From IMG/VR virus record IMGVR_UViG_2703718859_000026: a stretch of 35,593 nucleotides of DNA. One strand, written 5' to 3'. Below are positions 1,623 through 34,171 of this stretch, piece by piece. Source of the stretch: a virus. Lineage: Duplodnaviria; Heunggongvirae; Uroviricota; Caudoviricetes. The notes below the pieces were generated by a model that did no database searches, had not been told where the DNA came from, and saw only the letters and a program-made list of their open reading frames with translations. Each line of letters begins with the position of its first letter. The first letter of the stretch is position 1. The position numbers and the translations under genes were made by a program.

Positions 1623-1796
1623 TCCTGACTCACACTATCTTCAGGCCACGGCAGTGGCACCACACGTCAAACATTCGCTTTACAACTTCACGGCAGTAGA
1701 AGCCGTGAGCATCTCTGGTTAAATCGTATCGGTACCCGTATCTGAGTCGTATCCATATTTCAAACTCGCGATTCACGACTTATTCTCCTGCTGTCT

Positions 1797-2039
1797 TTAT
1801 GCCAGTTCATCCGGTTGCGCTGGGGCCCAGGCCTTCCGTGGCCTGTATTTGCGGCGTTTTCTGGCTTCAATGCGTATCTTTGTCACCCTGACTGGCTTTG
1901 GTTCGTGCCGGAACACTTTGTTTCTGATATTACGCCGTGTATTCATCATCCAGATAAAACGCTGGGTATGGTCGCATCCGTCATCAACGGTAATTACTGT
2001 GCGGACCAGTTCATCGTTAATATCAACCATTTCACCCAT
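1797..2039 (-). CDS. Hypothetical small basic protein
   Basis: 80 aa ORF in leftward operon, overlaps stop of upstream gene by 8 nt (operon-like coupling). Confidence 0.3.
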   Translation of the reverse strand: MGEMVDINDELVRTVITVDDGCDHTQRFIWMMNTRRNIRNKVFRHEPKPVRVTKIRIEARKRRKYRPRKAWAPAQPDELA

Positions 2040-2934
2040 TCACTGAGCCCTCATACGCGAATTTCGTGGCTTCCATCAGTTGCGTCCATACCCATTCAAG
2101 AAATTGTGCGTTTTCTCCTGAGCGGTCATATTCATCGACGCTGCGGGGCTTGATGGTCGCCAGTAGTGGCACAATCCGGTACTTCATCTGTTCGGTTAAC
2201 TTGTCCGGTACAAGTCGCCAGCCGTTATATTTCGATGGAACATGGTGGTATTCAGCCAGGAAGCGTCGTATATCGTTTTTCATTTCCTCGCATGAGTTCT
2301 GATCATGAAGTGCAGCGGAAAGCCAGCGTCCGATATATTCAGGGATTCGCACATCAAGTACTTTTTCTGCCGTCGTCAGCATTGCCTGTCGGCAGGCGTT
2401 CCAGCCGTTGACATAGTGACGTGTTGCATCCCATGAAACCTGCACATCAGGGTAAGCATCCTGTTCTGTTCTCACTGGCGGTATCTGAGGAACAGTGAAT
2501 AGTGGACTGACGATATATTTATCCAGAGAGCCTCCCCGCTCTTCTGCAAGACTTTCCCACGATGTCATTGTGGGGACCCTGTAACCTGCTTTTTTGTGCG
2601 TATACATCCATGCCACTCTGCCGTTATCATCTGCGGCGGCAATGCGCTGCCAGGCAGGATAAAGCGGGGTGTATGTTTCTCTGTCATTACGGGCGTCAGG
2701 CATGGCATCAATACTGCAAACTTCCCCCGTAAGGTTATTCAGCCAGGCCTTCGGGCTAATCTCTGACGTTACGATTTCATCCAGTTTTTTCTCCAGATTT
2801 TCTATGTGACTGATTAGCGCAAGGATAACTGGCGGAGTGGCAAGGGAGTGAAATGCTTCCAGATCACATCCCTTGTCTCCATATACGGTATTTTGTGCGG
2901 CGTCACGCAGTGCTTTCAGATCAGCTTCTTTCAT
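2032..2934 (-). CDS. Ead/Ea22-like early protein (hypothetical)
   Basis: 300 aa; N-terminal segment (ALRDAAQ ... PPVILALISHIENLEKKLDEI) resembles the Ead/Ea22-like family of lambdoid early-left regions as recalled from memory; no search run. Confidence 0.5.
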   Translation of the reverse strand: MKEADLKALRDAAQNTVYGDKGCDLEAFHSLATPPVILALISHIENLEKKLDEIVTSEISPKAWLNNLTGEVCSIDAMPDARNDRETYTPLYPAWQRIAAADDNGRVAWMYTHKKAGYRVPTMTSWESLAEERGGSLDKYIVSPLFTVPQIPPVRTEQDAYPDVQVSWDATRHYVNGWNACRQAMLTTAEKVLDVRIPEYIGRWLSAALHDQNSCEEMKNDIRRFLAEYHHVPSKYNGWRLVPDKLTEQMKYRIVPLLATIKPRSVDEYDRSGENAQFLEWVWTQLMEATKFAYEGSVNG

Positions 2935-5955: not shown

Positions 5956-6318
5956 TTAATGATTAACGCATCTGGTAATATGCCCCTCTTTAATGTAATC
6001 GATGCATTCATTCAAAAGTTCATCAATGATTAACTTTCCTGATTCAGTCAGATACTCACCATGTTGGTTGATACCGACAGCATCCTGGTATGCAGTGCGT
6101 ATTGCTGTTTCACCATCTTTCCGCCCAAACTCACCACGGGTAACGCCTTCAAATCGTAATAGCAACTGGCTTATGAACTGTTCTGTTATTTCAATAGTTG
6201 TTAACTCTCCATCATGACGCTTTACAGTGAGGAGGTTACTTCCTGTTTTTCGTTTCATCCGCCGCAGTGCTGCAACCGTTATGCGGCGACGATATGCAGA
6301 AATGTATTCATCTTTCAT
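5956..6318 (-). CDS. Hypothetical protein
   Basis: 120 aa ORF in leftward operon. Confidence 0.4.
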   Translation of the reverse strand: MKDEYISAYRRRITVAALRRMKRKTGSNLLTVKRHDGELTTIEITEQFISQLLLRFEGVTRGEFGRKDGETAIRTAYQDAVGINQHGEYLTESGKLIIDELLNECIDYIKEGHITRCVNH

Positions 6319-6492
6319 TTGTTATTTCCCGTATGCCTTTTTGAGAAACAATACTGCAACTGACCAGTATCCGGCATCAGCCATTAATAAAGCGGTTTTA
6401 TAGGCATGTTTGTCTTTCATGTGTCATCCCCATTTTAAAATAGTGAGAACTCCCGACCGCAGACCGTCATGTTTTTATGTATGATTGTCTGT

Positions 6493-6693
6493 TTAATTTC
6501 CTTTATTCGTTCTCAGAGCATCAACATACTCGTAAGCCTTTTCACAGGTTTTATTCATGGAACGAATCAGACAAAGTAAGAAATCATCTGTCTCTCCGTT
6601 ATCACCAGAGTTTTTAAATATAAACTCAAGCATTGACGTGTTTTCTTTTATTTCTGCTGCCACTTCCTCAAGCATAATCAGGGGAGTTTTCAT
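6493..6693 (-). CDS. Small acidic protein, paralogue of 5721..5915
   Basis: 66 aa; see paralogue; 4-nt overlap with upstream ORF. Confidence 0.4.
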   Translation of the reverse strand: MKTPLIMLEEVAAEIKENTSMLEFIFKNSGDNGETDDFLLCLIRSMNKTCEKAYEYVDALRTNKGN

Positions 6694-6881
6694 GTTCTTT
6701 GTTCCTTAAATGCATCGCATGCGCTTCTGGCGTATTGTTGTGCCAGTAAAAATATGTCATCCGAAAGTTCATCACATTCTTCATCACTGGAAGCCGAAAT
6801 GATTAACCCCGCTTCAAGCAGTACTGCAATGTGATGAAAAGCTGTTTCCGGTTCGTTGGTGAGGCCTTTGAACATTTTCAT
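6690..6881 (-). CDS. Hypothetical small acidic protein (internal Met start MKMFKG preferred over track start 6944)
   Basis: Track ORF 6690..6944 overlaps HTH gene; internal ATG leaves about 1-nt gap. Confidence 0.35.
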   Translation of the reverse strand: MKMFKGLTNEPETAFHHIAVLLEAGLIISASSDEECDELSDDIFLLAQQYARSACDAFKEQRT

Positions 6882-6882
6882 C

Positions 6883-7260
6883 TTACGATTCCTTTGTCGT
6901 GTCAGAATGGAAACTTGTAAGTAACCACATCGGATCGCAGTCAAGTATATTTGCCAGAGGAATCACCTGGCTTGCCAGAGGTTCAGCCTTGCCGTTCTCC
7001 CACTGGATGATGGTTTCTTCATCAACTCCAAGCAGCGTGGCGAGTTCAGCGGTGGATAGACCGCAGCTTTCGCGTTGGGTGCGGATGCCATCACGGCAAT
7101 CTTTTTTGTTTCTCGGAGGTAACAGAATATGTTTTAGTTGTTGGATTTTTTCGATTCCAACCTCAAGGAGTACGTGACGGTTTCTTTCCGATACAGACTC
7201 GAGACTTTCATGAAGCAGCGATTCTACTTGTTCGATAAGCATCAATTGTGAAGTAGACAT
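6883..7260 (-). CDS. XRE-family helix-turn-helix protein with N-terminal extension
   Basis: 125 aa; C-terminal half CGLSTAELATLLGVDEETIIQWENGKAEPLASQVIPLANILDCDPMWLL is a textbook XRE HTH; first gene of the leftward operon next to cI. Confidence 0.55.
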   Translation of the reverse strand: MSTSQLMLIEQVESLLHESLESVSERNRHVLLEVGIEKIQQLKHILLPPRNKKDCRDGIRTQRESCGLSTAELATLLGVDEETIIQWENGKAEPLASQVIPLANILDCDPMWLLTSFHSDTTKES

Positions 7261-7267
7261 AAAAAAA

Positions 7268-7302
7268 CCTCGTAACCAATATTTCGAAATCTAGGTTACG
7301 AG
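7268..7302 (-). promoter_or_regulatory. Palindromic element downstream of cI: hairpin plus T7 tail on minus strand (terminator and/or OL-like operator)
   Basis: CTCGTAACC ... GGTTACGAG arms around inner palindrome ATTTCGAAAT; plus-strand A7 at 7261-7267 gives a T-tail on the minus-strand transcript. Confidence 0.4.
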
Positions 7303-7345
7303 TGAGTAATGTAGGTGTCAAGAGCAATTAATGTTTTTTGTTGAA

Positions 7346-8053
7346 TTAAATTTGCATACGCATCTCAACGACAACACCAATAATTTCGCAATCCCCATTG
7401 ATGGGGATCAGTGGATAGCGTGGGTTTAGTGGCTTTAGGAAACATTGCCCAGCGTCTTCTATGTACTGTTTAAGGGTTGCCTCTCCGGAGTTTTTGAGCC
7501 TGGCGACGACATATTTTCCTGAAAAAACTTCTTTGTCAGGGTTAACAAGAATGTTCATGCCTTCAAAAATAGAGAACTCTCCATTCTGTGATGTCATTGA
7601 GTCCCCTTTCACTTCCAGCCAGAAGCCGTGATCGCCCGCATATATATCACTACCAATCCATTCTTCTGGATAAGCTATGTAATCTTCGCAGTTCCAGGGG
7701 CCAGCACTCACCCATGTTAGTTTCGGATATCTATAACGGTTTGGAGAAACTGGCTTAGGATTTCGGACGTTTTGAATGCTATCTGTAGGTGATGGGGCGC
7801 TGCCGTCAAGAAGCCATTTAGGAGAGCATTTCAATGCATCCGCGATTCTAAATAGGTTTGAAGATCTTGTGTCTTGTGAGTCTCCTAACTCTATTTTGCT
7901 GATTGTTACACGCGAGACACCAGTCAATTTTGCCAGGTCATCTTGTGACATTCCTAGCTGTACTCTGCGCATTAACAGTCTGCCACCAAAGCTATCGTGA
8001 TCCATCTTCTCCCCCTTCTTGTCGAAATAATCGTTTCGAAACAAATATAGCAA
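7346..8053 (-). CDS. cI: CI-like prophage repressor (HTH plus S24 LexA-type peptidase domain)
   Basis: N-terminal HTH (LGMSQDDLAKLTGVSRVTISKIELG) and C-terminal autocleavage-type domain (GDSM ... ARLKNSGEATLKQY); track start is TTG, probable true start is ATG about 8005 (MDHDSF). Confidence 0.85.
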   Translation of the reverse strand: MLYLFRNDYFDKKGEKMDHDSFGGRLLMRRVQLGMSQDDLAKLTGVSRVTISKIELGDSQDTRSSNLFRIADALKCSPKWLLDGSAPSPTDSIQNVRNPKPVSPNRYRYPKLTWVSAGPWNCEDYIAYPEEWIGSDIYAGDHGFWLEVKGDSMTSQNGEFSIFEGMNILVNPDKEVFSGKYVVARLKNSGEATLKQYIEDAGQCFLKPLNPRYPLIPINGDCEIIGVVVEMRMQI

Positions 8054-8110
8054 AAAATCTTGAAATCTAGGTTTCGGAAAATTAAGATTAATCGAAACAA
8101 ACGTGTCGAG
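8021..8110. promoter_or_regulatory. cI-cro divergent control region with repeated TTTCGAAA-type palindromes (OR-like operators)
   Basis: GTTTCGAAAC perfect palindrome about 8033-8042; TCGAAAT, TTTCGGAAA, TCGAAAC half-sites; 12-mer GAAATCTAGGTT about 8062-8073 shared with the element near 7286. Confidence 0.45.
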
Positions 8111-8116
8111 GTGGAT

Positions 8117-8326
8117 ATGGATTTGTATGAAATTCTAAAAAACATGTTTGGATCGAATGTTGAAATAGGTCGTTATTTTCCCCGAAGGGGAAGGGCTAGA
8201 ACCGGACAGGCTGTAGGTAAGTGGAAAACCCGAGGTGTGCCGGAAGATGTGGCGATCCTTTGTCATCTGGATCCCAAAATTCCTTATCAGCATCCGTCGC
8301 TCATGAATGCCAGTCATGAATCGTGA
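8117..8326 (+). CDS. cro: Cro-like small regulator
   Basis: Divergent from cI across a palindrome-rich intergenic region; GAGGTGG Shine-Dalgarno about 4 nt upstream of ATG 8117; AVGKWKTRGVPEDVAI resembles Cro/YdaS-type recognition helix region. Confidence 0.5.
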   Translation: MDLYEILKNMFGSNVEIGRYFPRRGRARTGQAVGKWKTRGVPEDVAILCHLDPKIPYQHPSLMNASHES

Positions 8327-8344
8327 TGTTCTGCCGGAGGCTGT

Positions 8345-8638
8345 ATGTCCCCTGATTACGTTCAGATGGAGATGCCTGCCAGGTACAGCCAGGCAGATTC
8401 AGAGTGGATTAAGCGGCAGTTACAGAGCCTGCCTTCCTCACTGAGACAGAAGGTCGCCCTGAAATACGAGGAGGTTTACGAAGTTACTTTTGATTCCGAG
8501 CCTGTTTCATTCCGTAAGGAGAACAGAGCGAGGCATGAAGCCAATGTACGGCTGCGCAGGTTCGTTGAAACACACGGGCGTGCATTACAGGGGTATACGA
8601 CTCAGCCGCCCCTGGCAGGAACGCAACAGCGTACCTGA
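8345..8638 (+). CDS. Hypothetical early protein (cII position)
   Basis: 97 aa ORF directly after cro; no motif recognised. Confidence 0.45.
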   Translation: MSPDYVQMEMPARYSQADSEWIKRQLQSLPSSLRQKVALKYEEVYEVTFDSEPVSFRKENRARHEANVRLRRFVETHGRALQGYTTQPPLAGTQQRT

Positions 8639-8882: not shown

Positions 8883-9251
8883 ATGAGCGCTGAACTGAAA
8901 CTGGTACTAATCAACCTTCTGGAAGAGGAATTCGGACATGGAATGGACAAGGTCACATTCGACTACGTTCTGCAAAAGAAAATCAAATCTCTGGGCTGTG
9001 AGTTGCAACGCTGTTTCACTGTCAGGCTGAAAGGTGATCGCAGGGGATTTATCGATCTTCTGGTTATTTCTCCCGATGGTCAGCGTTGCGCAGTTGAGGT
9101 GGATAACCGATCGCCCCGTCAGCGTTCACTGATGAAAATTCGAGCGCTTCCTGAAGGCATTTCGGGATTTGTTTTTCTCCGTGATGGCAAACATCCACAG
9201 CGTTATATCGCCGATGGTGTGGATGTCATCCGGGCGACCCGGTTTAAGTAA
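8883..9251 (+). CDS. Hypothetical protein, possible small nuclease-like fold
   Basis: 122 aa; segment GFIDLLVISPDGQRCAVEVDNRSP loosely resembles D...E-x-D/K nuclease cores (low confidence). Confidence 0.45.
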   Translation: MSAELKLVLINLLEEEFGHGMDKVTFDYVLQKKIKSLGCELQRCFTVRLKGDRRGFIDLLVISPDGQRCAVEVDNRSPRQRSLMKIRALPEGISGFVFLRDGKHPQRYIADGVDVIRATRFK

Positions 9252-9284
9252 TCACTGTATCAGCCCTGTCATCGGGAGAATACC

Positions 9285-10943
9285 ATGCTGAATATCAAGC
9301 CGAATTTTGCTCAGGAACGTGCGCTGAATATGTTGCGTCATGACTGGAAAACATATCAGTCCTTCATGATGTACATGCCTACAGGGAGTGGTAAAACCGG
9401 CCTGGCGGCGTTCATCACTGCTGGTCTGGTAAGCCGTGGCATGCGCGTTCTGTTTGTCGTTCCTTATACCATTTTGATCAACCAGACAGCACAGCGCTTT
9501 GTTCAGTACGGGCTTTCAGGGGATGAAATCAGCTTTATCTGGCGTGATCATCCCAATAACGACCCGTCACGACTGATTCAGATTTCCAGTGCGGATACGC
9601 TGATTCGCCGTGATTTTCCTCAGAATATCGACCTGCTGATTATTGATGAAGCGCATCTCCGTAAGCGCCGCATCCTCACGGAAATCGAACGACTGGTTGC
9701 AGAGGGAAATGTGAAGGTGATTGGGTTGTCCGGTACACCCTTTTCATCGTTCCTGGGGCGTTATTACCAGCGTCTTCTCAAGCCGACCACTATAGGGGAA
9801 CTGATCCAGCGTGGCGAACTGAGCAATTACGAATTTTATGCGCCCACGAAACCGGATCTGGAAGGTGTAAAAACGAAAGTCTCAATGGAGTACGGCAGGG
9901 ATTACGACGAATCACAACTGGCAGAGATTATGTGCGGCGCGGATCTGGTTGGCGATATTGTCGATAACTGGCTGTGTAACGGAAGGGATTTACCGACAGT
10001 GGCGTTCTGCGTCAATAAAACGCATGCCAGCTTCGTGACCATGCAGTTCAACAAAGCCGGAATTAACGCAGAGGTGATGGTTGCTGAAACGCCACATGAT
10101 GAGCGTCAGTTAATGATCAGTCGTTTTGAAACGGGAGCGACGAAAATCATTGTCAGCGTTGGCGTTCTGGTGGCGGGATTTGACAGTGATGTCCGGTGCA
10201 TCATTTACGCACGCCCGACAAAATCAGAGATTCGCTGGCTTCAGGCGATTGGGAGAGGATTGCGTACAGCGCCAGGCAAGGAGTCATGCCTGATTTTCGA
10301 CCATTCCGGTACGGTTCATCGCCTGGGATTTCCTGAAAATATTGAGTATGACGAACTGCCCGGCAAAAACGACGGGATGCAGGTGTCATCATCACGTGGT
10401 AACGAAATTCGGGAAGAAAAACTGCCGAAAGAATGTCCGGGGTGTCATTTCATGAAACCGGCAGGTGTTTATGTCTGTCCGAAATGCGGATTTAAACCGC
10501 TGGCTGGTGAGGATGTGAACACAGATACCCGCCGCAATATCAGGAAACTCAGCAAGGACGAAAAAATTTACACCAAAAGCGACAAACAGGCCTGGTGGAG
10601 TCAGATCAAATTCTATCAGCGTCAGCGTGCCTCTCTGGGGCGACCGGTCAGCGATGGATGGTGCGCTCACACTTTCCGGGAGAAGTTCGGCGAATGGCCT
10701 GACGGGCTGAGCAGTTTTCCGATGGAAATCACCCCGGAGGTCAGTAATTACATCAGACACAAATTCATCCGGTTTGCCAGAGGGCGTAGCCGGGCAGAGA
10801 AGATGACGGAAAAATCCCCCGAAGCGCTTTCTCTGTCCCTGCTTCATGGTGTCCGGTCTGGGGTGCCGGAAGGCAGTGAGTCGTGGCAGATCATGCAGGC
10901 AAAGCAACAACTTCAGAAAAACAGAAACAGTCTGAGTCAGTAA
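9285..10943 (+). CDS. Superfamily 2 DEAD/DEAH-box helicase with C-terminal zinc ribbon (replication helicase)
   Basis: Walker A MPTGSGKT, motif II IIDEAHL, motif VI QAIGRGLR; C-terminal CPGCHF ... CPKCGF. Confidence 0.85.
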   Translation: MLNIKPNFAQERALNMLRHDWKTYQSFMMYMPTGSGKTGLAAFITAGLVSRGMRVLFVVPYTILINQTAQRFVQYGLSGDEISFIWRDHPNNDPSRLIQISSADTLIRRDFPQNIDLLIIDEAHLRKRRILTEIERLVAEGNVKVIGLSGTPFSSFLGRYYQRLLKPTTIGELIQRGELSNYEFYAPTKPDLEGVKTKVSMEYGRDYDESQLAEIMCGADLVGDIVDNWLCNGRDLPTVAFCVNKTHASFVTMQFNKAGINAEVMVAETPHDERQLMISRFETGATKIIVSVGVLVAGFDSDVRCIIYARPTKSEIRWLQAIGRGLRTAPGKESCLIFDHSGTVHRLGFPENIEYDELPGKNDGMQVSSSRGNEIREEKLPKECPGCHFMKPAGVYVCPKCGFKPLAGEDVNTDTRRNIRKLSKDEKIYTKSDKQAWWSQIKFYQRQRASLGRPVSDGWCAHTFREKFGEWPDGLSSFPMEITPEVSNYIRHKFIRFARGRSRAEKMTEKSPEALSLSLLHGVRSGVPEGSESWQIMQAKQQLQKNRNSLSQ

Positions 10944-12830: not shown

Positions 12831-13280
12831 ATGGTTACAGCGGAGTACAGAATAATGCGTGATATCCAACAGGTTCTGTCCCGATGGGGTGCATGGGTGG
12901 TAAATAATCATGAGAGTGTGGCATGGTCCGGCGTCGCTGCCGGATTTAAGGGAGTGATCCCATCAAAGGTTAAATCACGGCCTCAGTGTACCGATGATGA
13001 TGCGCTGATTATCAGCAATTGCATGGCGCAACTGAACGTCAACAACAGCGATTTGCATGATTTTCTGTATGATTATTATGTGTTCGGGATGACGCTTATG
13101 GGACTGGGCCGTAAGCATGAGCGCTCTGATTGCTGGGCCGGGCGGGTACTGCAAAAAGCTGAAGGTGTTATTGAGGGGATGTTGATTATGCAGGGAATAA
13201 AACTGGAAATGGACAGATACGTTGAGCGTGAACGATCAAGGGCACAGGTCAGTCAGTTTTCCGGACATACGGGAAATTGA
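12831..13280 (+). CDS. Q: Late-gene antiterminator Q (933W/Stx-phage type)
   Basis: [20 protein letters not shown] ... [14 protein letters not shown] ... [11 protein letters not shown] closely matches remembered Q of Stx phages; probable start ATG about 12855. Confidence 0.8.
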
Positions 13281-13304
13281 AAGCGCGGGGTTTTACTGTA
13301 GAAT
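13277..13304 (+). promoter_or_regulatory. PR'-like late promoter candidate (TTGAAA - 16 nt - TAGAAT)
   Basis: Near-consensus sigma70 -35/-10 pair overlapping the Q stop codon, the expected position of PR'. Confidence 0.4.
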
Positions 13305-13639
13305 GACTGCGGGTGCTTGAGGGGGTCTGCCTCGGGCATGCTGCCGTAAGGCAGACGGAGAAAAGCCCCAGTTAACATTACGTGTCCTGCAAGACGCTTA
13401 ACATTAATCTGAGGCCCAATCTATGTCACACAACCGTAGGTTAGCCTCTTACGTGCCGGAAGGCAAGGAGAAGCAGTCTATGAAGCAGCAAAAGGCGATG
13501 TTAATTCGCCCTGATCGTCATCTGTTTAACCGTCATAGTGACGGCACTGGTAACGAGGAAAGACCTCTGCGAGGTACGAAATGTGTCAGGCATCCTCAAC
13601 GCACCCGTACTTTATTTGTCATATGCTCCGCAAAATGCA

Positions 13640-13671
13640 GGTTGTCGTTGCAACCCGTGCGGTAATTTTTT
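13640..13671 (+). terminator. Weak tR'-like terminator candidate
   Basis: Short stem GGTTG/CAACC followed about 10 nt later by T6; imperfect. Confidence 0.25.
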
Positions 13672-13718
13672 GTGTGCGAGTGCTCAAAAAACGTTGATTT
13701 TCATAAAAGGATGATTTT

Positions 13719-15800
13719 ATGCTGCCAGACCAGCGACCAGCGACCAGCGACCGTAAATCAAGAAAGTCTGTAAAATCTGTTGAACCAGACATTGCCGACC
13801 GGGCTAACAGCTGGCTCAAATCTTATGGACTTGATTACAAACTGGAGCAGGCACCACTTAACAACGAGATCGATAACGCACTGGATGCTTATTTTTCGAA
13901 AAATGGCGGCGCAGGCGGTAATCGTCCCGACGTAAAACTCCTTGTTCAGGACAAATACGGCAAGCAGTATCCCGTTCTCATCGAGTATAAAGGCTACAAG
14001 GACAGGCTTATCAGACTTGGCAGCAACGGTATTATTGAGAACAAAGATGCCAGAAAAGAATGGAATTTTAAAAATATTAATGGATACGCGGTGAATGGCG
14101 CAGTCCATTATGCCAACGCACTTCTTCAGTTCACCAATTACCCTGATATTATTGCTATTGGTATGACCGGCTGGCGCGATGATGATACAGGCGAACTGCA
14201 TCATGAAATCGGCGTGTGGTACGTATCAAAGAATAATTTAGGAGCCGGGCAGAAGGTTGGTGAATTCACCGACTTATCATTCCTTGCTGACAAAAATGTT
14301 GATGGATTTCTCAACAAGATAAAGCTGCTTAATCTTCCTCCCGAAGAACTGGAAAAAATCAAGGCCAGCAAAGAGGAAGAGATAGACACGCGACTTTCCC
14401 GTCTGAATAACGATATTTACCAGAATGAAAAGGGGCTTGGTGAAAGCGATCGTGTTTACCTTGTTGTGGCTACCGTTATTGCAACGTTGGGGATTCCGGG
14501 AAAGTTAGCACCGCTGGATAAAAAAGAACTGACCTCTTCAACGGAGGAGGACTTGCGTGATGGTGATATTATTTTCAGGAAAATAAGGAATTTTTTAAGG
14601 CTGAAAGCTGTTCCTGAAACAAAAAGAGAAATGATTTTGCGCTCGTTGCAAAATACGCTGTGGACTGAAAACATTAACAAACCAGTCAACGGTGAAAGCC
14701 AGTTAAAGCGCGTGTTTGTTAAAGTTGTTGATGATCTTGGGGAGTATTACAAAATCGGACTGACCACCGATTTTACGGGCAAACTGTTTAATGAGATGTA
14801 TCGCTGGCTTGGATTTACGCAGGACAAACTCAATGACGTCGTTCTGACACCACCTTATGTTGCCACATTGCTGGCACGACTCGCCAGAGTAAACAAAGAT
14901 TCCTATGTGTGGGATTTTGCTACAGGTTCTGCGGGATTGCTTGTGGCTGCAATGAATGAAATGCTCATTGACGCCAGAGAAAATATTCACTCACCGAATG
15001 AACTACAACTTAAGGAAGCGCAAATCAAGGCTGAACAGCTTCTTGGCCTTGAGGTGTTATCCAGTATTTATATGCTGGCCATCCTGAATATGATTTTGAT
15101 GGGGGATGGTAGCTCGAATATCCTCAATAAAGACTCGCTGGCCGATTTTGACGGCAAGTATGGATTTGGGAAAACAGGAGAAAAATTCCCTGCGGACGCA
15201 TTTATTCTCAATCCTCCGTATTCAGCTAAAGGTAACGGCATGATTTTCGTGCAGAAGGCGCTGTCGATGATGGATAAAGGCTATGCTGCAGTGATTATCC
15301 AGAGTTCAGCCGGCACAGGAAAGGCTACGGAGTACAACAAAAAAATACTCAAGGAAAATACCTTGCTGGCAAGCATCAAAATGCCTGCGGATCTGTTTAT
15401 TGGTAAATCAAGCGTTCAGACGTACATTTACGTTTTTCAGGTAAAAATTCCGCATAACGCGAAACAGGCTGTTAAGTTTATCGACTTTTCCAATGACGGC
15501 TATGCTCGCTCTAATCGCAAAAAGGCAAGAAACAATCTTGTTGATGCCGATCGTGCAAAAGAGCGTTATCAGGAGGTTGTGGATCTGGTTCACTTCGGGA
15601 AAGGTTGCCTTAATATCTTTACGGAGGATGAATATTTTGAGGGAACAATCGATCCTGATAGTGGTGAGGACTGGAATCAGACCAGGCCAGTAGATACCAG
15701 ACCGACACTGGAGGATTTTAAAAAGACGGTTGGCGACTATCTTGCGTGGGAGGTGTCAAAACTTCTTCAGGGGCGTGATGCGTCAGAAAAAAAGCAGTAA
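13719..15800 (+). CDS. Restriction-modification enzyme subunit: N-terminal PD-(D/E)xK-like nuclease motif fused to gamma-class N6-adenine DNA methyltransferase (BcgI-A / MmeI-like)
   Basis: 693 aa; NRPD71-x17-E89-Y-K91; motif I VWDFATGSAGLLVAA then motif IV FILNPPYSAKG in gamma order; AT-rich relative to flanking phage genes. Confidence 0.7.
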   Translation: MLPDQRPATSDRKSRKSVKSVEPDIADRANSWLKSYGLDYKLEQAPLNNEIDNALDAYFSKNGGAGGNRPDVKLLVQDKYGKQYPVLIEYKGYKDRLIRLGSNGIIENKDARKEWNFKNINGYAVNGAVHYANALLQFTNYPDIIAIGMTGWRDDDTGELHHEIGVWYVSKNNLGAGQKVGEFTDLSFLADKNVDGFLNKIKLLNLPPEELEKIKASKEEEIDTRLSRLNNDIYQNEKGLGESDRVYLVVATVIATLGIPGKLAPLDKKELTSSTEEDLRDGDIIFRKIRNFLRLKAVPETKREMILRSLQNTLWTENINKPVNGESQLKRVFVKVVDDLGEYYKIGLTTDFTGKLFNEMYRWLGFTQDKLNDVVLTPPYVATLLARLARVNKDSYVWDFATGSAGLLVAAMNEMLIDARENIHSPNELQLKEAQIKAEQLLGLEVLSSIYMLAILNMILMGDGSSNILNKDSLADFDGKYGFGKTGEKFPADAFILNPPYSAKGNGMIFVQKALSMMDKGYAAVIIQSSAGTGKATEYNKKILKENTLLASIKMPADLFIGKSSVQTYIYVFQVKIPHNAKQAVKFIDFSNDGYARSNRKKARNNLVDADRAKERYQEVVDLVHFGKGCLNIFTEDEYFEGTIDPDSGEDWNQTRPVDTRPTLEDFKKTVGDYLAWEVSKLLQGRDASEKKQ

Positions 15801-15834
15801 ACTCCCGTCTTGCAGAGCTTGAGCGGGAGTTTAT
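15788..15834 (+). promoter_or_regulatory. Candidate -1 programmed frameshift signal: A AAA AAG heptamer plus 10-bp stem-loop (alternatively an intrinsic terminator)
   Basis: Heptamer at the last two Lys codons of the methyltransferase ORF; stem TAAACTCCCG / CGGGAGTTTA with 16-nt loop begins about 3 nt downstream; the -1 frame is open into the next ORF. Confidence 0.4.
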
Positions 15835-15874
15835 TAAATCTGGTGGTAAATGGGAAGAATACACAATCGAAAGA

Positions 15875-16402
15875 TTGTTCAGTATTCAGACACCTAAAAA
15901 GAAATTTAATGCCAATAAATTAACATTTAATGGCAACTATCCTTATGTTGCCAGAGGAAGTAACAATAACGGCATAAAAGGATATATAGATGAAGATGAA
16001 TTATATCTCAACCCGGGGAATACAATTAGCTTTGGTCAGGATACTGCGACCATGTTCTATCAGGAAAACGCATATTTCACAGGTGATAAAATAAAGATTT
16101 TTTCTCTCAGACATGGAGAGTTAAATTCGCGAATTGCTGTTTTTCTTATATCAGCAATGAAAAAATCTTTTTCAACGTTTAGTTGGGGGAGTAGCTCTTT
16201 TAATGAGAATGTTCTCAATAAGGTAAAGATAAATATACCTACGTTTAATAATGTTCCTGCATATAATTATATGGTAAAGTATATAGAAGAGCTGGAAGCG
16301 GCCCATATAGAAGAGCTGGAAGCGGCCCATATAGAAGAGCTGGAAGCTTACTTGCTGGTTAGCGGACTCGCGGACTCGCGGACTCGCGGACTCGCGGACT
16401 GA
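15875..16402 (+). CDS. Specificity (S/B) subunit, first target-recognition domain plus repeat linker; no ATG start (track start is TTG)
   Basis: 175 aa; TRD-like segment LTFNGNYPYVARGSNNNGIKGYID; C-terminal IEELEAAH repeats; frame open upstream back to within the methyltransferase 3' end. Confidence 0.6.
   Translation: MFSIQTPKKKFNANKLTFNGNYPYVARGSNNNGIKGYIDEDELYLNPGNTISFGQDTATMFYQENAYFTGDKIKIFSLRHGELNSRIAVFLISAMKKSFSTFSWGSSSFNENVLNKVKINIPTFNNVPAYNYMVKYIEELEAAHIEELEAAHIEELEAYLLVSGLADSRTRGLAD
16281..16348 (+). repeat. 24-bp in-frame tandem repeat, about 2.8 copies (ATATAGAAGAGCTGGAAGCGGCCC), encoding (IEELEAAH)n
   Basis: Visible directly in DNA and in the translated ORF (YIEELEAAHIEELEAAHIEELEA). 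Confidence 0.9.
16362..16400 (+). repeat. 8-bp tandem repeat GCGGACTC, about 4.9 copies, at the junction of the two TRD ORFs
   Basis: AGCGGACTCGCGGACTCGCGGACTCGCGGACTCGCGGACTGA; unit length not a multiple of 3. Confidence 0.9.
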
Positions 16403-16464
16403 TAAGCTATGAGCTTACACCACAGGAATATAACGCGATTGAGCTATTAAATAGCAATAATCTT

Positions 16465-16986
16465 ATGTGGGGCACTTATAACCTCAAAAAGTTATTTGGC
16501 CCCGCAATAAGAGGTAAGCGTCTGAAAAACGCAGATCGTATACCCGGCTCCTTGCCTTTTGTTACTGCGGGTGAAGGCAATGAAGGTATTTCTGCATTTA
16601 TCAGTAATGATGTTGTTGTATTCCCTGAAAATACCATTACGATAGATATGTTTGGCTCCGCAAAATACAGAAATTATGAGTATGGTGCAGATGACCATGT
16701 GGCAGTTGTTCATACAGAATTCTTTGACAGAAATGCCGTTATTTTCATAACAGCATCAATTCATAAGTCTTCTTGTACCGGAAAGTTCAACTACGGGAGA
16801 AATTTCTATGCAAAAGATGCCGACGAGTTAATGGTATCTTTGCCGTCAAAAGATAATAACCCTGATTATTCTTTCATGGAGACGCTAATTCTAGCAGTAC
16901 ATAAACTGGTCATCAAAGATGTTGTCCAGTACACTGATAAAAAGCTGGTAGCGTACAGGCAGATTACATCTGAGAAGGTTGTTTAG
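16465..16986 (+). CDS. Specificity (S/B) subunit, second target-recognition domain, in a different frame from the first
   Basis: 173 aa; TRD-like segment RIPGSLPFVTAGEGNEGISAFIS paralogous to the first TRD; frame open upstream through the 8-bp repeats; no Shine-Dalgarno seen. Confidence 0.6.
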   Translation: MWGTYNLKKLFGPAIRGKRLKNADRIPGSLPFVTAGEGNEGISAFISNDVVVFPENTITIDMFGSAKYRNYEYGADDHVAVVHTEFFDRNAVIFITASIHKSSCTGKFNYGRNFYAKDADELMVSLPSKDNNPDYSFMETLILAVHKLVIKDVVQYTDKKLVAYRQITSEKVV

Positions 16987-17108
16987 TGCAAATCCCCACC
17001 TGACAGGGTGGGGAATGGTCAGGTTATCGTGCCCTGATGCAGAAAAACAGTTTACAATCGTAAAAATCATCATATCATGACAAAAGTGGTTACATTGCCA
17101 CGCTGCTT

Positions 17109-17133
17109 AACCCGCCGATGCGCGGGTTTTTTG
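17109..17133 (+). terminator. Rho-independent terminator
   Basis: Stem AACCCGC/GCGGGTT, 6-nt loop, T6 tail. Confidence 0.6.
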
Positions 17134-17312
17134 TATCCAGAATCCTGTAAGTTATACGGAAAGTACACAGAAAGGAAGGTGCGACCGCAATTAATAACAA
17201 AATCTTAAAAATCGCATATGGCACTATTAGTTTTCTAAATATTGTATATTTTAAGTATTGCAGGATGACCCTGTAACGAAGTTTGCGTAACAGCATTTTG
17301 CTCTACGAGTTT

Positions 17313-17342
17313 GCCAGCCTCCCCCAGTGGCTGGCTTTTTTT
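17313..17342 (+). terminator. Rho-independent terminator
   Basis: Stem GCCAGCC/GGCTGGC, 9-nt loop, T7 tail. Confidence 0.65.
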
Positions 17343-17583
17343 GTATCCGTTCAACAGGAATGTTACATACCTCACAATTAAGTCTGTTGAATGTTGTCTG
17401 CCCGGATGAGAATTTGTTAGAAAAAAACTGCATGGTGAATCCCCCTGTGCGGAGGGGCGACTGGTGAATGGTATGATCTCTTTGATGATCGTAAGCGAGA
17501 ATACGCGGGTTTGGTGGCACCAGGCCGAACTCACCGGGAGGCACCCGGCACCATGCAGTATACAGAGATTAGGCATATATCAG

Positions 17584-17608
17584 GGCCCCTCATAGCAGGG
17601 GCCTTTTT
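17584..17608 (+). terminator. Rho-independent terminator
   Basis: Stem GGCCCCT/AGGGGCC, 6-nt loop, T5 tail. Confidence 0.6.
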
Positions 17609-17825
17609 ACATGCAAAAAAAAGCCGCCCCGGGAAGAGCGGTTGGCAAGAAGAAAAGCAATATGAACAATTAATTAACGCTGCGAATAATACCTTACAGT
17701 AATCACCCTGCGCAACTGTGAGGAGTGTATTTCTTTTTTGCGGGTGGTTGTCTTTTTCCCTTGTGTTTCGGGACTTCCGCTCACTCCTTATCTTATTCAG
17801 TACATTATCCCGGCCGGGAGGATTC

Positions 17826-19865
17826 ATGGCATTTAAACACTATGACGTGGTCAGGGCGGCGTCGCCGTCAGACCTTGCGGAACGAATAACTCAAAAACTG
17901 AAGGAAGGGTGGCAGCCTTATGGTAGTGCGCTGATTTCGACAGCTGGTTATGGTGCGGAGTTCATCCAGCCAGTTGTGAGTGAGGGGAGCATCTCATCAC
18001 CAGAGGAGCCAGGCAACCGTCCGACGACCTCAGCGCCTTCTGTTGCGCCAGAATATTACTATGTGATCGCGCTTGCTGGTCAGTCCAATGGTATGTCATA
18101 CGGTGAGGGACTGCCATTACCGGATACATTCGACAGCCCTGATCCACGTATTAAACAGTTAGCGCGTCGCAGTACGGTGACACCGGGCGGCGCTGCATGT
18201 ACCTATAACGATATTATTCCGGCAGATCACTGTCTCCATGATGTACAGGATATGAGCAGCCTTCATCATCCGAACGCCGATCTGTCAAAAGGTCAGTATG
18301 GCTGCGTCGGACAGGGTTTACATATCGCCAAAAAATTACTGGCGTTTATCCCGAAAAATGCCGGAATCCTTCTGGTACCTTGCTGTCGTGGAGGGTCAGC
18401 ATTTACTTCCGGCGCTGAGGGGGCATTCAGTGAATCGTCAGGAGCGACGGCCGAATCATCCCTGTGGGGTGTCGGCAAGCCGCTGTACAACGATCTGCTT
18501 ACCCGTACAAAAGCCGCGCTGGATAAAAACCCCAAAAACGTCCTGTTATCCGTGGTCTGGATGCTGGGAGAGTTTGATCTGAAGTCAGCAACATACGCAC
18601 AGCACCCGCAATTATTCCTGAACATGGTGAATCAGTTCCGCGCCGATCTCAGCGCATATTCTTCACAGTGCACCGGAGGCAATGCATCATTTGTTCCCTG
18701 GATTTGCGGCGATACCACCTATCTCTGGAAACAAAAATATACCTCTCAGTACCCGGTGGTTTACGGTGCATATCAGAACAAAGAAGCGCAAAAAATTTAT
18801 TTTGTGCCCCTGATGACCGATGAGAAAGGTACTAACACGCCAACAAACCTGCCTGCCGAAGATCCTGATCTGGCAGAAGCCGGTTATTACGGTGCTGCAT
18901 CCCGCAGTAATGGAAACTGGACCTCTTCAGATCGCGCCACGCATTTCAGTTCATGGGCCCGTCGCGGCATTGTTTCTGACCGTCTGGCAACGGCGATCCT
19001 GATGCATGCAGGGAAGACAGCCGCCTTCCTGAAAGGCACACCCGCACCGTTCAGCGTGGTCGTAGCGCCTCCCGCCACGGCAGGTTCAGACAGCGCCACC
19101 ACGGAAAGCCCGCAGCCCTCCACATCTGCACCTCAGCCGGGCGCAGGCACACAGCCATCACCGGAAGTTCCACCGGCAACTGAAACACCGGCAAGAACAA
19201 CTGCCGTCGCTTATCGTGCAGATACACAGGAAGGGAAACTGAAAGAACAGGGCTGGACGGGGGCAGACGGAAAAGCCTCTGTCGTAGATGATTCTGCTGC
19301 TGAGAGCGGTAAAGCCATGCGAGTGGAAAAAGTCCAGGGGCAACAAACAGCCTGGAAAATTGCCCACGATGTGCCTGCAAGTAAAGCAGCTGAATTACTT
19401 CAGAGAGGCGGTGAAATTGCCTTCCGTTTCAAAATTCCCGAAGGTGTTCAGCTGGCAACAAACCGCTTCGCCATGGCCCTGTACTGGCCTGTTTCTCAGC
19501 TACCTGAAAACGTTGTTCTGGAAGGCAGCGCAGGAAACGATATGCTGGCCGCCTTCTTCATCCAGAGCGACAGCGCAAACCTGAATCTGATGCAGCACAA
19601 ACAACAGAATGCAAAACTGGGAACCTTCGGGGCATTTAATCATAACTGGCACAACGTGGTGTTCAGGTTTGCCGGCAATAACAGCATCAGCGTGACACCG
19701 GTCATCAACGGTCAGACCCAGGCGGCCTTTAATCTGGCGAAATGCCCGGCGGCAGGACTGGATAACGACAAGCTGTTACTCACTGACATTACCAGTAACC
19801 AGGATACCTACCCGGTTCTGATTGAGCACGTAACAGTGGCAATCAATAACAGCAACGCCGCATAA
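17826..19865 (+). CDS. nanS-p: Prophage-encoded 9-O-acetyl sialic acid esterase NanS-p (DUF1737 N-terminus plus SGNH/SASA hydrolase domain)
   Basis: MAFKHYDVVRAASPSDLAERITQKLKEGWQPYG N-terminus and GQSN motif (YYYVIALAGQSNGMSYGEG); GGGAGG Shine-Dalgarno before ATG 17826; track start 17718 is an upstream non-ATG extension. Confidence 0.8.
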   Translation: MAFKHYDVVRAASPSDLAERITQKLKEGWQPYGSALISTAGYGAEFIQPVVSEGSISSPEEPGNRPTTSAPSVAPEYYYVIALAGQSNGMSYGEGLPLPDTFDSPDPRIKQLARRSTVTPGGAACTYNDIIPADHCLHDVQDMSSLHHPNADLSKGQYGCVGQGLHIAKKLLAFIPKNAGILLVPCCRGGSAFTSGAEGAFSESSGATAESSLWGVGKPLYNDLLTRTKAALDKNPKNVLLSVVWMLGEFDLKSATYAQHPQLFLNMVNQFRADLSAYSSQCTGGNASFVPWICGDTTYLWKQKYTSQYPVVYGAYQNKEAQKIYFVPLMTDEKGTNTPTNLPAEDPDLAEAGYYGAASRSNGNWTSSDRATHFSSWARRGIVSDRLATAILMHAGKTAAFLKGTPAPFSVVVAPPATAGSDSATTESPQPSTSAPQPGAGTQPSPEVPPATETPARTTAVAYRADTQEGKLKEQGWTGADGKASVVDDSAAESGKAMRVEKVQGQQTAWKIAHDVPASKAAELLQRGGEIAFRFKIPEGVQLATNRFAMALYWPVSQLPENVVLEGSAGNDMLAAFFIQSDSANLNLMQHKQQNAKLGTFGAFNHNWHNVVFRFAGNNSISVTPVINGQTQAAFNLAKCPAAGLDNDKLLLTDITSNQDTYPVLIEHVTVAINNSNAA

Positions 19866-31728: not shown

Positions 31729-32378
31729 TGACGACGATTACAGAAATCATCGGACGTGTGAATACACAACTGGTTGACCCGATGATGGTTCGCTGGCCCC
31801 TGCAGGAATTGTGCGATTATTACAATGATGCTGTGAGGGCAGTGATTCTGGCGAGACCGGATGCTGGCGCAAGCCTGGAAACAATCAGTTGTGTTCCTGG
31901 CGCCCGTCAGGTTTTGCCCGATGGTGTAATACAACTTCTTGACGTGATATGCCTCAGTGACGGTAGTGCAGTCAGACCATTATCCCGGGAGGTGCTGGAT
32001 GCGCAGTATCCTGAGTGGCCCACAATGAAGGGCATTCCTGAATGTTTTATCAGCAACGACCTGTCCCCGCGCGTATTCTGGCTGTTTCCTGTCCCTGACA
32101 AAGAGATAAGTATTGATGCAGTGGTAAGCCGGATACCGGAGGCAGTGTATGTTCTGACGCAGGACGATGATACGCCAGTTCCACTGGAAGAGGCTTATGT
32201 TAACCCACTGGTGGACTGGATGTTGTTTCGTGCTTTCAGTAAGGATGCTGCCGGTGGTGCAGAATCGGGGCTGGCTGCGCAGCATTATCAGAGTTTTGTT
32301 GAGCAACTTGGGATCAAACAGGGGGCAGACAGTGCATTGTCTGCCCGTAAAAAAGTGTTTAACGGAGGTGGAGTGTGA
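31728..32378 (+). CDS. Hypothetical virion-module protein
   Basis: 216 aa, start overlaps upstream stop. Confidence 0.45.
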
Positions 32379-34171
32379 GTGTTGTTGTTTCGGGGACGCT
32401 GAAATCTCCTGATGGTGAGGCGATATCAGGAGCAAATATTACCCTGACGGCGCTGACAGTTTCACCGGATGCGCTCAGCGGCACCAGTGCGTCGGCAGTG
32501 ACCCGTGAAGGTGGATATTACGGAATGACGATGGATCCGGGGGAGTATGCGGTTTCGGTGACGGTGAAAGGGAAGACAGCTGTCTACGGACGTGTGCGTA
32601 TTGAGGGGACCGAAAGTACGGTGACGCTCAATATGCTGTTACGCCGCAGTCTTGTTGAGGTGAGCATACCCGGAGAGCTGCTGACAGATTTCCGGCAGAT
32701 ACAGAATAATGTGGCTGATGACCTTGCCACTATTCGTCGCCTGAATGAAGACACGGCGACAAAAAACACTCAGGCCACACAGTCAAAAGAAAGTGCAGCA
32801 GCCAGTGCGAAGAGTGCATCTGACAGTGCAAAGACGGCAACCAGCAGGGCGGCTGAAGCCGGACAAAAAGCCAGTGAAGCTGCAGAAGCAGCGACCCGGG
32901 CAGGCGAGTCTGAAAAGGCAGCGGCAGCAGACGCGAAAAATGCAAAACAACATGCTGAAACAGCCCGGGTGGCTCAGCAGGCAGCCGGAGACATTCTTGA
33001 GCGTGCGGAGGCTGCAACGGTCAGTGCAGAGGAAGCCCGGCGCATGGCTGAGAATGCGCGGGGACCTCAGGGCGACCAGGGGCCCAAAGGTGATACCGGC
33101 CCCCGGGGTGAAAAAGGTGAGCCGGGTCAGAGAGGTCCTCAGGGTCCGAAAGGAGAGCGCGGTGAGAGAGGTCCTCAGGGTAGTGTCGGCCCGGCAGGTC
33201 CGCGGGGTGAGAAAGGCGAGCAGGGGGAGCGTGGACCACAGGGATTACAGGGGCTGAAAGGTGAAACCGGAGAACGTGGAGCACAGGGCGCACAGGGACC
33301 GGCAGGCCCGACGGGGGCAACGGGGCCTGCTGGTCCTCGTGGTGAGACGGGGCCACAGGGTGCACAGGGGCCAGCCGGAGCAACAGGACCTGTTGGGCCA
33401 CAAGGAGAGCGCGGTATTCAGGGGCCTGCCGGTCCTGCGGGCCCGCGAGGTGAAACCGGAGCCAGAGGTGAAAAAGGAGACCCCGGGGACCCCGGCGGCC
33501 CACCGGGACCAAAGGGTGATACCGGACCTGCTGGCCCTGCCGGTGAAAAAGGTGAACCCGGTGAGCGAGGGCCACAGGGATTACAGGGACCACCGGGTCC
33601 TGCCGGAGAGAGAGGTCCGGCAGGCGAACCGGGAGCGAAAGGTGAAACCGGAAAACCCGGACCTGCTGGTCCTCAGGGGCAGCCCGGTCCACAGGGACTT
33701 AAAGGTGACAGGGGCGAGCCAGGACCTACAGGCCCACAGGGACCGGCGGGAGAGCGGGGACCTCAGGGGCCTCGGGGGGTAGCTGGTCCTGTCGGCCCGG
33801 CAGGTGCAGCGGGCGCTAAAGGTGATGCAGGACCTGCAGGGCCTGCCGGTCCCCGAGGACCCGCCGGTGAACGGGGCCCTGCCGGGCCGAAAGGTGAGCG
33901 TGGTGAACCGGGACCGATGGGGCCTCCGGGGCCAGCAGGCGACGCAGGAAACAGCACAGTAAAAGGCATTCGTCTGGGAAATGAGATGGTGTACCGTCCA
34001 TATAGTGGCTATAGCAACTTGAGCCTACGCTCAATGGATGGCTGTGTGCTTACGGGAATTGCGGGAACAAACATGCCAGACAAGAGCCGTATAGATGAAA
34101 TCTACTACAGACCCTTGCAAATGACTTTTGGTGATGGAAGCTGGCGCTCAGTCGGTATAGGGGAAGTGTGA
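32375..34171 (+). CDS. Tail fibre protein with collagen-like Gly-X-Y repeat domain
   Basis: 598 aa; Ala-rich coiled segment, then about 98 consecutive G-X-Y triplets (aa about 230-525), then a globular C-terminus; followed by tail fibre assembly gene. Confidence 0.7.
33062..33950 (+). repeat. Collagen-like triplet-repeat coding region (GGN CCN / GGN GAN ... periodicity)
   Basis: Protein shows uninterrupted [22 protein letters not shown]... pattern; DNA correspondingly GC-rich and repetitive. Confidence 0.85.

Follow-up and report, generated by a model that had tools for sequence, protein, structure and literature searches.

A prophage-borne Type IIB-like restriction-modification locus with a candidate -1 frameshift-decoded specificity region and repeat-dependent reading frames

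The window analyzed here is the whole 35,593-nucleotide (nt) stretch of Caudoviricetes phage DNA held as record IMGVR_UViG_2703718859_000026. The segment under study, at positions 13719–16986, carries a predicted restriction-modification (RM) module of three open reading frames (ORFs) on the + strand: 13719–15800 (693 amino acids, aa), 15875–16402 (175 aa, listed from a TTG codon) and 16465–16986 (173 aa). The first is referred to as gene A and codes for a nuclease-methyltransferase chain, while the other two lie in the specificity (S) region, which codes for target recognition domains (TRDs). Taken as a whole, the locus is best explained as an RM enzyme in which S is decoded through -1 ribosomal frameshifting and in which tandem repeats switch both expression and specificity, a reading that is considered probable. 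The window was compared with enterobacterial prophage copies of the module and with approximately 90 loci from approximately 80 species of many phyla. A scan of viral contigs yielded 26 loci and a one-genome-per-species scan yielded 522, of which 80 were fetched (L038–L117).

Gene A, when read in frame with the second of two candidate start codons (ATG2, the ON frame), codes for an R-M polypeptide that matches the PADLOC profile REase_MTase_IIG (5e-234) and the Pfam family N6_Mtase (5e-21). The PD-(D/E)xK nuclease motif, P70-D71 ... E89-Y90-K91, is encoded at 13926–13991 (+ strand). It is followed on the same strand by methyltransferase motif I, DFATGSAGLL (residues 399–408; 14913–14942), and motif IV, NPPY (residues 498–501; 15210–15221), in the gamma order. 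An earlier note on this DNA had described this succession, and each motif was found where it had been placed. The note had also expected the large ORF to resemble N6-adenine methyltransferases and the small ORFs to resemble S subunits, which the N6_Mtase match and the matches of the small ORFs to S-subunit profiles bear out. In an alignment of 41 homologous sequences, residues P70, D71, E89 and K91 are invariant, as are the columns of motifs I and IV. There is a weak, sub-threshold match to Pfam VRR_NUC over residues 36–98, and the TIGR00497 hsdM model scores 36 bits against A, its cutoff being 243. The AlphaFold model of A, with a mean predicted local distance difference test (pLDDT) score of 64 and values of 80–94 in the N-terminal domain, was matched by Foldseek to the BsaXI RM chain 8w0p_A (E 1.4e-7 over 632 columns, template modeling score 0.28). 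The predicted fold also matches Type I HsdM structures. The RM identity is in itself not new, a homologue being already named “restriction enzyme BcgI alpha chain-like protein” in one phage record.

The body of A (674 or 675 aa) is intact in 35 of 35 enterobacterial loci, whatever the frame set by the tract at its start, and the ratio of nonsynonymous to synonymous substitution rates (dN/dS) between alleles is 0.04–0.12. This indicates that A is under purifying selection and that its frame is broken only at repeat tracts.

Gene A ends in the window with the sequence ...GAA AAA AAG CAG TAA. This contains the slippery heptamer A_AAA_AAG (15788–15794, + strand), in the zero frame of A and one codon before the stop, which is the proposed -1 frameshift site. 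The S frame is open from 15779, overlapping the end of A, and is without ATG, GTG or TTG until the TTG at 15875. This codon sits within the conserved N-terminal TRD motif KWEEYTIERLF, and the 32 codons that precede it form an open, conserved stretch of the frame. A -1 slip at the heptamer would read ...SEKK-AVNSRLAELEREFIKSGGKWEEYTIERLF..., giving a predicted fusion of 894 aa. The arrangement is general, as S lies in the -1 frame at 113 of the 114 loci with a recognizable A (window included), and a canonical start codon is often first met in the S frame only after 25–158 codons, within TRD1. The heptamers at the end of A are G_GGA_AAA (52), G_GGA_AAG (49), A_AAA_AAG (8) and A_AAA_AAA (4), located 0 or 3 nt before the stop. 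All four belong to the V_VVA_AAR class, and the heptamers with the highest efficiency in E. coli are of this type (PMC4066793).

An in-phase X_XXY_YYZ heptamer is present in all 86 distinct junctions. As a control, four other invariant Gly-Lys dipeptides within A were found to be slippery in 1/83, 4/81, 0/82 and 2/84 sequences (0–5%). The Gly codon at the junction is always GGA and the base preceding it is always G, whereas the control Gly-Lys sites use all four Gly codons. Transcriptional slippage was considered as the main route and rejected: most members have only A3–A4 (GGGAAAA or GGGAAAG), and A7 is found only in the enterobacterial a and c alleles.

Directly 3′ of the heptamer there is a hairpin (15796–15835, + strand) with a GC core formed by ACUCCCG (15801–15807) and CGGGAGU (15824–15830), which is the proposed stimulator. 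Its folding energy in the window is -23 kcal/mol (z -4.0), with none of 200 shuffles equally stable. Folds of the downstream 66 nt at eight junctions gave z values between -4.0 and -6.4 for five junctions, values of -2.3 and -2.9 for two more, and -0.46 for the last. Covariation was examined in a gap-free alignment of 78 distinct junctions, which share a 12-bp stem with a 15-nt loop, beginning 5 nt past the heptamer. In the stem, 95.8% of alignment cells are paired, as against at most 48% when the 3′ arm is slid, and none of 500 shuffles reach the observed values. Five stem pairs have changes on both sides. Pair 27-49 is UA in 30 junctions, CG in 28, UG in 15 and GC in 1, and pair 19-57 is GC in 40, UA in 7 and AU in 6. 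In the alignment, the synonymous position of a Leu codon in pair 27-49 covaries with a Lys/Glu replacement 22 nt away, which would be hard to explain except through RNA pairing.

The junction has the features of programmed -1 frameshifting, namely a zero-frame heptamer conserved beyond what the protein needs and a covarying downstream stem at a 5-nt spacer. It appears that such frameshifting makes both A and an A-S fusion, the product and its efficiency being predicted from the sequence. One relative with 60% identity, L029, is found on an AT-rich viral contig of 181 kb and has a single in-frame ORF of 850 aa (5998–8550) in which A is joined to a one-TRD S at the same junction. That contig has another methyltransferase-like ORF downstream, at 9164–10213. 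An engineered EcoKI M-S fusion is active, but extra free M is needed in vitro (PMC3510504).

It could be argued that S is a separate polypeptide, made through termination and reinitiation at the codon overlapping the stop of A (ATA, GTA or ATG in xTAA, xTAG or ATGA), and that GGGAAA merely codes for a conserved Gly-Lys C-terminus. The EcoKI hsdM and hsdS genes are translationally coupled in this manner across a 1-nt overlap (PMC3510504). In the present family, the S-frame codon at the stop overlap is ATA or GTA in most loci (GTA in the window) and ATG in about 10 (GGGAAAATGA). However, ATA and GTA are very poor bacterial initiators, and L052 and L099 have CTA at this position, yet retain the heptamer 3 nt upstream. 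A coding role for Gly-Lys does not account for the fixed GGA and its preceding G, given how rarely the control sites are slippery. Reinitiation has no use for a covarying hairpin at the canonical 5-nt spacing, and the natural in-frame fusion in L029 is at the same junction. Reinitiation is considered an unlikely explanation of how S is expressed.

The S region in the window is divided between two frames. Part 1 (15794–16402, + strand) is in the -1 frame of A and comprises a linker, TRD1, a central helical region and a stop the position of which is set by repeat number; it matches Pfam Methylase_S (3e-20). Part 2 (16363–16986, + strand) is in another frame, comprises TRD2 and a conserved C-terminal helix, and matches PADLOC Specificity_II. 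Its first ATG, at 16465, has no Shine–Dalgarno sequence. A single PADLOC profile of 341 positions, “Type II specificity subunit”, is matched by the second ORF of the module over positions 23–154 and by the third over positions 181–332 (E 6e-15). Two repeats detected by Tandem Repeats Finder (TRF) lie between the TRDs. The first is an in-frame 24-bp repeat of 2.8 copies (16281–16347, + strand), coding for IEELEAAH three times in the central helical region and present in 2, 3 or 4 copies in relatives. The second is an octanucleotide tract, (GCGGACTC)4.9, with 100% matches, in the inter-TRD linker (16362–16400, + strand).

The frame of the third ORF is open back into the octanucleotide tract. In silico, removal of one unit or addition of two gives a continuous two-TRD S, while any other number leads to a stop after TRD1. 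The tract ranges from 4.9 to 26.9 copies in related E. coli prophages, with S continuous only at 6.9, 9.9 and 18.9, and S is truncated in 9 of 35 enterobacterial copies. Strain OkiPb01714 has two prophage copies of the module, with 8.9 and 18.9 octanucleotide units and 2 and 4 IEELEAAH units, respectively. Judged by comparison with these relatives, the two small ORFs make up one S gene that is split in two at the 8-bp tandem repeat. The earlier note had taken them for two downstream ORFs with paralogous TRDs, a view that is wrong given the single ORF at 6.9, 9.9 and 18.9 copies. Its description of a complete single-enzyme system holds with respect to the R-M fusion, the TRDs and the lack of HsdR, but just TRD1 is in frame in the window. 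The note had overlooked the three tandem repeats and the frameshift site.

There are three TRD1 alleles (a, b and c) and three TRD2 alleles (x, y and z), found in the combinations a+x, a+y, b+y, b+x, b+z and c+x. Going by the alleles, this is classical TRD shuffling between copies. An apparent difference in S between UCPROB-001 and UCPROB-002 was traced to annotation noise, the S frames being identical. A member of the family from Bacteroidaceae has a G10 homopolymer in its S region (L066, 6652–6661), with S truncated at 216 codons, and may be a case of phase variation in S that arose independently in another phylum. Strain 2015C-3121 has an IS1 element at the start of its S region, just 3′ of the frameshift site (L119, 4654–5351), with A in the ON frame.

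An ordinary BcgI-like system of three genes, complete and constitutive, would have A together with two separately translated S halves (175 and 173 aa) in place of the 341-aa B subunit. All of the ORFs do exist with the listed starts (TTG 15875 and ATG 16465), and the two small ones each match a different half of one S profile. Separately expressed halves of Type I HsdS can reportedly reassemble, as in work on EcoDXXI and EcoR124. Nevertheless, TTG 15875 is inside KWEEYTIERLF with 32 open and conserved codons before it, and ATG 16465 is without a Shine–Dalgarno sequence. The halves are also a single ORF in relatives the octanucleotide number of which differs by -1 or +2 modulo 3, and the slippery heptamer and hairpin are kept in all but one related locus. 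Three independently translated genes are thereby rendered improbable.

The translation start region of A (13707–13721, + strand) has a Shine–Dalgarno sequence, AAGGA, at 13707–13711 and two start codons, ATG1 (13711–13713) and ATG2 (13719–13721). ATG2 is well spaced, with AAGGA 7 nt upstream, and ATG1 abuts AAGGA and is poorly placed. Their offset of 8 nt puts the two in different frames. The start codon is followed directly by the heptanucleotide tract (GACCAGC)3.6 (13728–13752, + strand; TRF, 100% matches), which codes for DQRPATS and fixes the frame of A. Database proteins begin with either MLPDQRPATS (from ATG2) or MILCCQTSDQRPATS (from ATG1), and carry N-terminal DQRPATS arrays of differing length that match the tract. 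Among homologous loci the tract has 3–120 copies, the latter being 840 bp. In 30 enterobacterial loci with a complete tract, A is in the ATG2 frame (ON) in 10, in the ATG1 frame in 8 and in neither (OFF) in 12.

Sets of isolates with 0 substitutions in 3.6-kb flanks have different copy numbers: 83/93/99, 56/58/83, 76/83 and 23/30, a spread of 2–27 copies within sets. Copies resembling that of the window, with 0–1 differences in the body of A, range from 3 to 94 heptanucleotides. These are the features of simple sequence repeat (SSR) contingency loci, that is, perfect units of a length not divisible by three within or at the start of an ORF, with copy number and frame varying between close isolates. 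Both the heptanucleotide and the octanucleotide tracts are absent from the 80 non-enterobacterial relatives. Units of 7 and 8 nt are too long for correction by MutS, which would explain how the tracts can be unstable in a repair-proficient host.

The repeats have consequences for annotation. The RefSeq gene in strain 04-00955 that starts 5′ of the tract is explained by ATG1. The “YXWGXW repeat-containing protein” and the minus-strand “hypothetical protein” that RefSeq places between hok and A were rejected as genes, as they are reverse-strand translations of the heptanucleotide tract. Such calls, at L001 3510–4124 and at approximately 1735–2502 (minus strand) in L030–L037, look like annotation artefacts caused by the repeat. 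RefSeq also starts the methyltransferase gene at arbitrary internal codons, so that A is shortened.

The suggestion that the module is decaying cargo, with neutrally expanded tracts and with broken S genes and out-of-frame A genes as pseudogenes on the way to loss, draws on the 12 of 30 copies out of frame with both ATGs, the 9 of 35 with truncated S, the IS1 in the S of one copy, the frameshifted hok gene next to the module in the window and the rarity of the module (30 of 5426 complete E. coli genomes), but is very improbable given an A body intact in all 35 copies at low dN/dS, disruption of frame only at 100% perfect repeats, copy-number shifts between unchanged 3.6-kb flanks, and the occurrence of all four a/b by x/y TRD combinations, which implies ongoing recombination under selection.

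The frameshifting and repeat-switching model can be set out as follows. The segment would encode a Type IIB-like RM enzyme in which A provides a PD-ExK nuclease and a gamma-class N6-adenine methyltransferase, with Type I-style TRDs for specificity. Ribosomes translating A would reach A_AAA_AAG and pause at the hairpin (15796–15835), and a fraction would slip into the -1 frame. This would yield A (693 aa) and the A-S fusion, and the presence of both from one message would give the (RM)2S composition of BcgI and BsaXI. The enterobacterial prophage lineage has added two frame-changing tandem repeats, which are observed to vary and are proposed to act as switches. The number of heptanucleotides would place A in the ATG2 frame (ON), in the ATG1 frame (probably with low expression) or in neither (OFF). 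As the nuclease and methylase are in one chain, both activities would switch together. The number of octanucleotides would decide whether S has both TRDs or TRD1 alone, and an S with TRD1 alone is expected, on the model of truncated Type I HsdS, to dimerize and recognize a symmetric site. The number of 24-bp repeats would alter how long the helix between the TRDs is, and thereby probably how wide a spacer the recognition site has. The predicted state of the window is A ON (3.6 copies, ATG2) with a TRD1-only S (4.9 copies) and TRD2 out of frame, the products being of 693 and 894 aa.

There are points that weigh against this model. The AlphaFold model of A is weak outside the N-terminal domain. 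Sequence searches of the Protein Data Bank (PDB) with A alone and with a 14-sequence profile gave no match even at E = 1, a null that is judged uninformative since Pfam and Foldseek do detect the methyltransferase. The hairpin in the window is unlike the family consensus in sequence, its lower stem beginning 1–2 nt past the heptamer, and shuffled sequences fold as well as the enterobacterial allele L014 does (z -0.46). In the approximately 10 non-enterobacterial loci with an overlapping ATG ordinary translational coupling is possible, and frameshifting may not be the sole route everywhere. Copy numbers of perfect repeats of 0.5–0.8 kb in public assemblies may be erroneous, which makes single ON/OFF calls uncertain, and neutral drift would likewise spread loci evenly over the three frames. 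A search for a promoter immediately upstream of A found none. Expression in a lysogen would require read-through or an unrecognized promoter, while the position of the module 3′ of the antiterminator Q gene and a PR′-like promoter would imply strong transcription on induction. Finally, BcgI prefers hemimethylated DNA for methylation (PMC3592466), which leaves it unexplained how cells survive switching from OFF to ON or between specificities.

In classification, the module is closest to BcgI and BsaXI. It shares with them an R-M chain with an N-terminal PD-ExK nuclease and a gamma N6-methyladenine (m6A) methyltransferase, a Type I-like two-TRD S and the lack of HsdR. No HsdR was found between 12.8 and 19.9 kb, where the flanking genes are Q, hok/sok and nanS-p. 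The BcgI-type architecture without HsdR proposed in the earlier note is supported by the matches of the R-M fusion and the Type I-like TRDs to the IIG and Specificity_II profiles. Its MmeI-like label does not fit, as the TRDs are not in the A chain but match Methylase_S and Specificity_II in another frame. MmeI-like IIG/IIL enzymes have their own C-terminal TRD in the R-M chain, whereas A ends after the methyltransferase and a helical C-terminus. The module is thus not MmeI-like because of its Type I-style TRDs, and not Type I because it has no HsdR. As in Type IIB enzymes, one chain carries the PD-(D/E)xK nuclease followed by the gamma m6A methyltransferase. The separate two-TRD S subunit of that type is not found, S being without its own start, in the -1 frame and, in the window, interrupted after TRD1.

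The S subunit of BcgI is presumably expressed separately. The same is established for BsaXI, which has been rebuilt from separate RM and S (PMC9159934). In the module described here, by contrast, S lacks a start codon and lies in the -1 frame. Both BcgI and BsaXI are (RM)2S (PMC3592470, PMC11997821). The predicted fusion can also be compared, by domain order alone, with the single-chain Type IIB enzymes, of which L029 is a natural in-frame example. In this group, which includes AloI, CjeI, TstI and PpiI, R, M and S are in one polypeptide. The difference is that the fusion is proposed to be only a fraction of the output here, beside free R-M from the same mRNA.

The frameshift sites of dnaX tau/gamma, lambda G/GT and IS3/IS911 OrfAB share heptamers with the family, A_AAA_AAG being that of dnaX and G_GGA_AAG that of lambda G/GT. 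Known -1 sites have a stem-loop 5–6 nt downstream and give two products per message in a fixed ratio (PMC4066793, PMC5009743), as is proposed here. They differ from the present site in that its host gene is an RM enzyme and that it is at the extreme end of the ORF, 0–1 codon before the stop.

For S, the nearest precedent is NgoAV of Neisseria gonorrhoeae, where LEAT repeats and a frameshift alter the site among GACN6TGC, GACN7TGC and GCAN8TGC (PMC6789123). A precedent for specificity switching through truncated S is also given in PMC7383803. In NgoAV, as here, a frame-changing repeat in hsdS gives full or truncated S and an in-frame inter-TRD repeat alters the spacer. NgoAV is a Type I system with a homopolymer and a 4-aa repeat, whereas the module is Type IIB-like, resides in an E. 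coli prophage, and has an octanucleotide, an 8-aa repeat and a second tract on the catalytic subunit. For A, the parallel is with the mod and hsdM genes of phasevarions, in which a tract with a unit length not divisible by three follows the start codon and copy number varies between near-identical strains. The lic1 locus of H. influenzae is a contingency gene with multiple ATG codons, where starts in different frames give graded expression. Compared with SSR-controlled mod and hsdM, the tract here is a heptanucleotide of up to 120 copies (840 bp), far above the usual number, nuclease and methylase would switch jointly, and the host is a mismatch repair-proficient enterobacterium, in which SSR contingency loci are considered rare. 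The two-subunit Stx-phage 16S rRNA methyltransferase of PA8 (PMC10810198) was considered as a candidate for this locus and rejected, being an unrelated MT-A70 enzyme located elsewhere in the phage.

The A protein is approximately 70% identical over Clostridia, Bacteroidota, alpha- to epsilon-proteobacteria, Spirochaetes and Gracilibacteria (522 species loci), which suggests extensive recent horizontal transfer of the RM family. A limited literature search found no paper joining ribosomal frameshifting with RM specificity subunits, and neither a 2016 recoding review nor the GeneTack study includes an RM case. A survey of SSRs in Type I systems (PMC7383803) mentions neither E. coli nor heptanucleotide tracts, and searches on GACCAGC, on heptanucleotide repeats and on BcgI with Shiga toxin found nothing relevant. 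The broader proposal, put forward with less assurance but still somewhat favored, combines two elements. The first is an RM family across many phyla in which S would be made only as a -1 extension, with recoding fixing the RM:RM-S ratio. The second is a set of three independent repeat switches layered onto it in E. coli lambdoid and Stx prophages: the heptanucleotide (ON/low/OFF), the octanucleotide (two- versus one-TRD) and the 24-bp spacer repeat.

Should this be the case, RM and defence systems would gain their first described programmed frameshift, which would add a class that is not a mobile element to bacterial recoding. It would also provide a simple rule for obtaining the (RM)2S subunit ratio from one mRNA, and a natural RM and RM-S pair for enzymologists. 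The S genes of the family (522 species loci from one scan) would then be mis-annotated, with arbitrary internal starts. The module, carried by phages, would act as a contingency locus in a species regarded as free of SSR phase variation, making methylation and restriction differ among sibling lysogens and the phages they release. Its tracts would be an uncommon instance of such variation in E. coli. The module adjoins stx in some Stx phages, and random shifts in methylation and restriction could influence which strains these phages are able to pass between. The heptanucleotide and octanucleotide tracts are also potential high-resolution typing markers.

With regard to genomic context, 30 of 5426 complete E. 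coli genomes carry the module, which occupies 34 places in them, all chromosomal. The GC content is 0.39–0.47 across 13501–17500 and 0.48–0.53 in the flanks, in agreement with the earlier note that the segment is the more AT-rich. Upstream is the antiterminator gene Q (12831–13280; Pfam Phage_antitermQ, 2.5e-45), the end of which is overlapped by a PR′-like sigma-70 promoter, TTGAAA-16-TAGAAT (13277–13304, + strand; 10/12 matches). Downstream is a nanS-p-type esterase gene (17718–19865; SASA/DUF1737/DUF6645). The placement of the cargo 3′ of Q and the promoter and 5′ of nanS-p, as the earlier note had it, is supported. Its statement that the module occupies the stx slot is imprecise. In related prophages the module, an additional insert, is followed by the ileZ-argN-argO tRNAs and, just downstream, by stx2b, stx2c or stx1c, and in others by just the tRNAs or by nanS-p. 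The occurrence of stx downstream of the same module implies that the two share a hot spot and that the module has not replaced stx.

Directly 3′ of the PR′-like promoter is a hok/sok type I toxin-antitoxin locus (13311–13660; Rfam sok, 97.6 bits). The hok gene in the window has a 1-nt T insertion (TTAATTCGCC versus TTAATCGCC), and unrelated sequence replaces its 3′ part, so that it is defective here. It is intact in several related prophages, and RefSeq labels the hok of close relatives “frameshifted”. On the other side, a hairpin and T-run resembling an intrinsic terminator (17109–17136, + strand) lie 3′ of the RM module. Between the module and nanS-p there is a full-length match to the small RNA STnc100 (17401–17614; Rfam, 197.9 bits). 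Further along the window, the region 32375–34171 has a GC content of 0.67–0.69 and codes for a protein of 598 aa that has a long collagen-like Gly-X-Y repeat and is presumably part of the tail fibre or side tail fibre.

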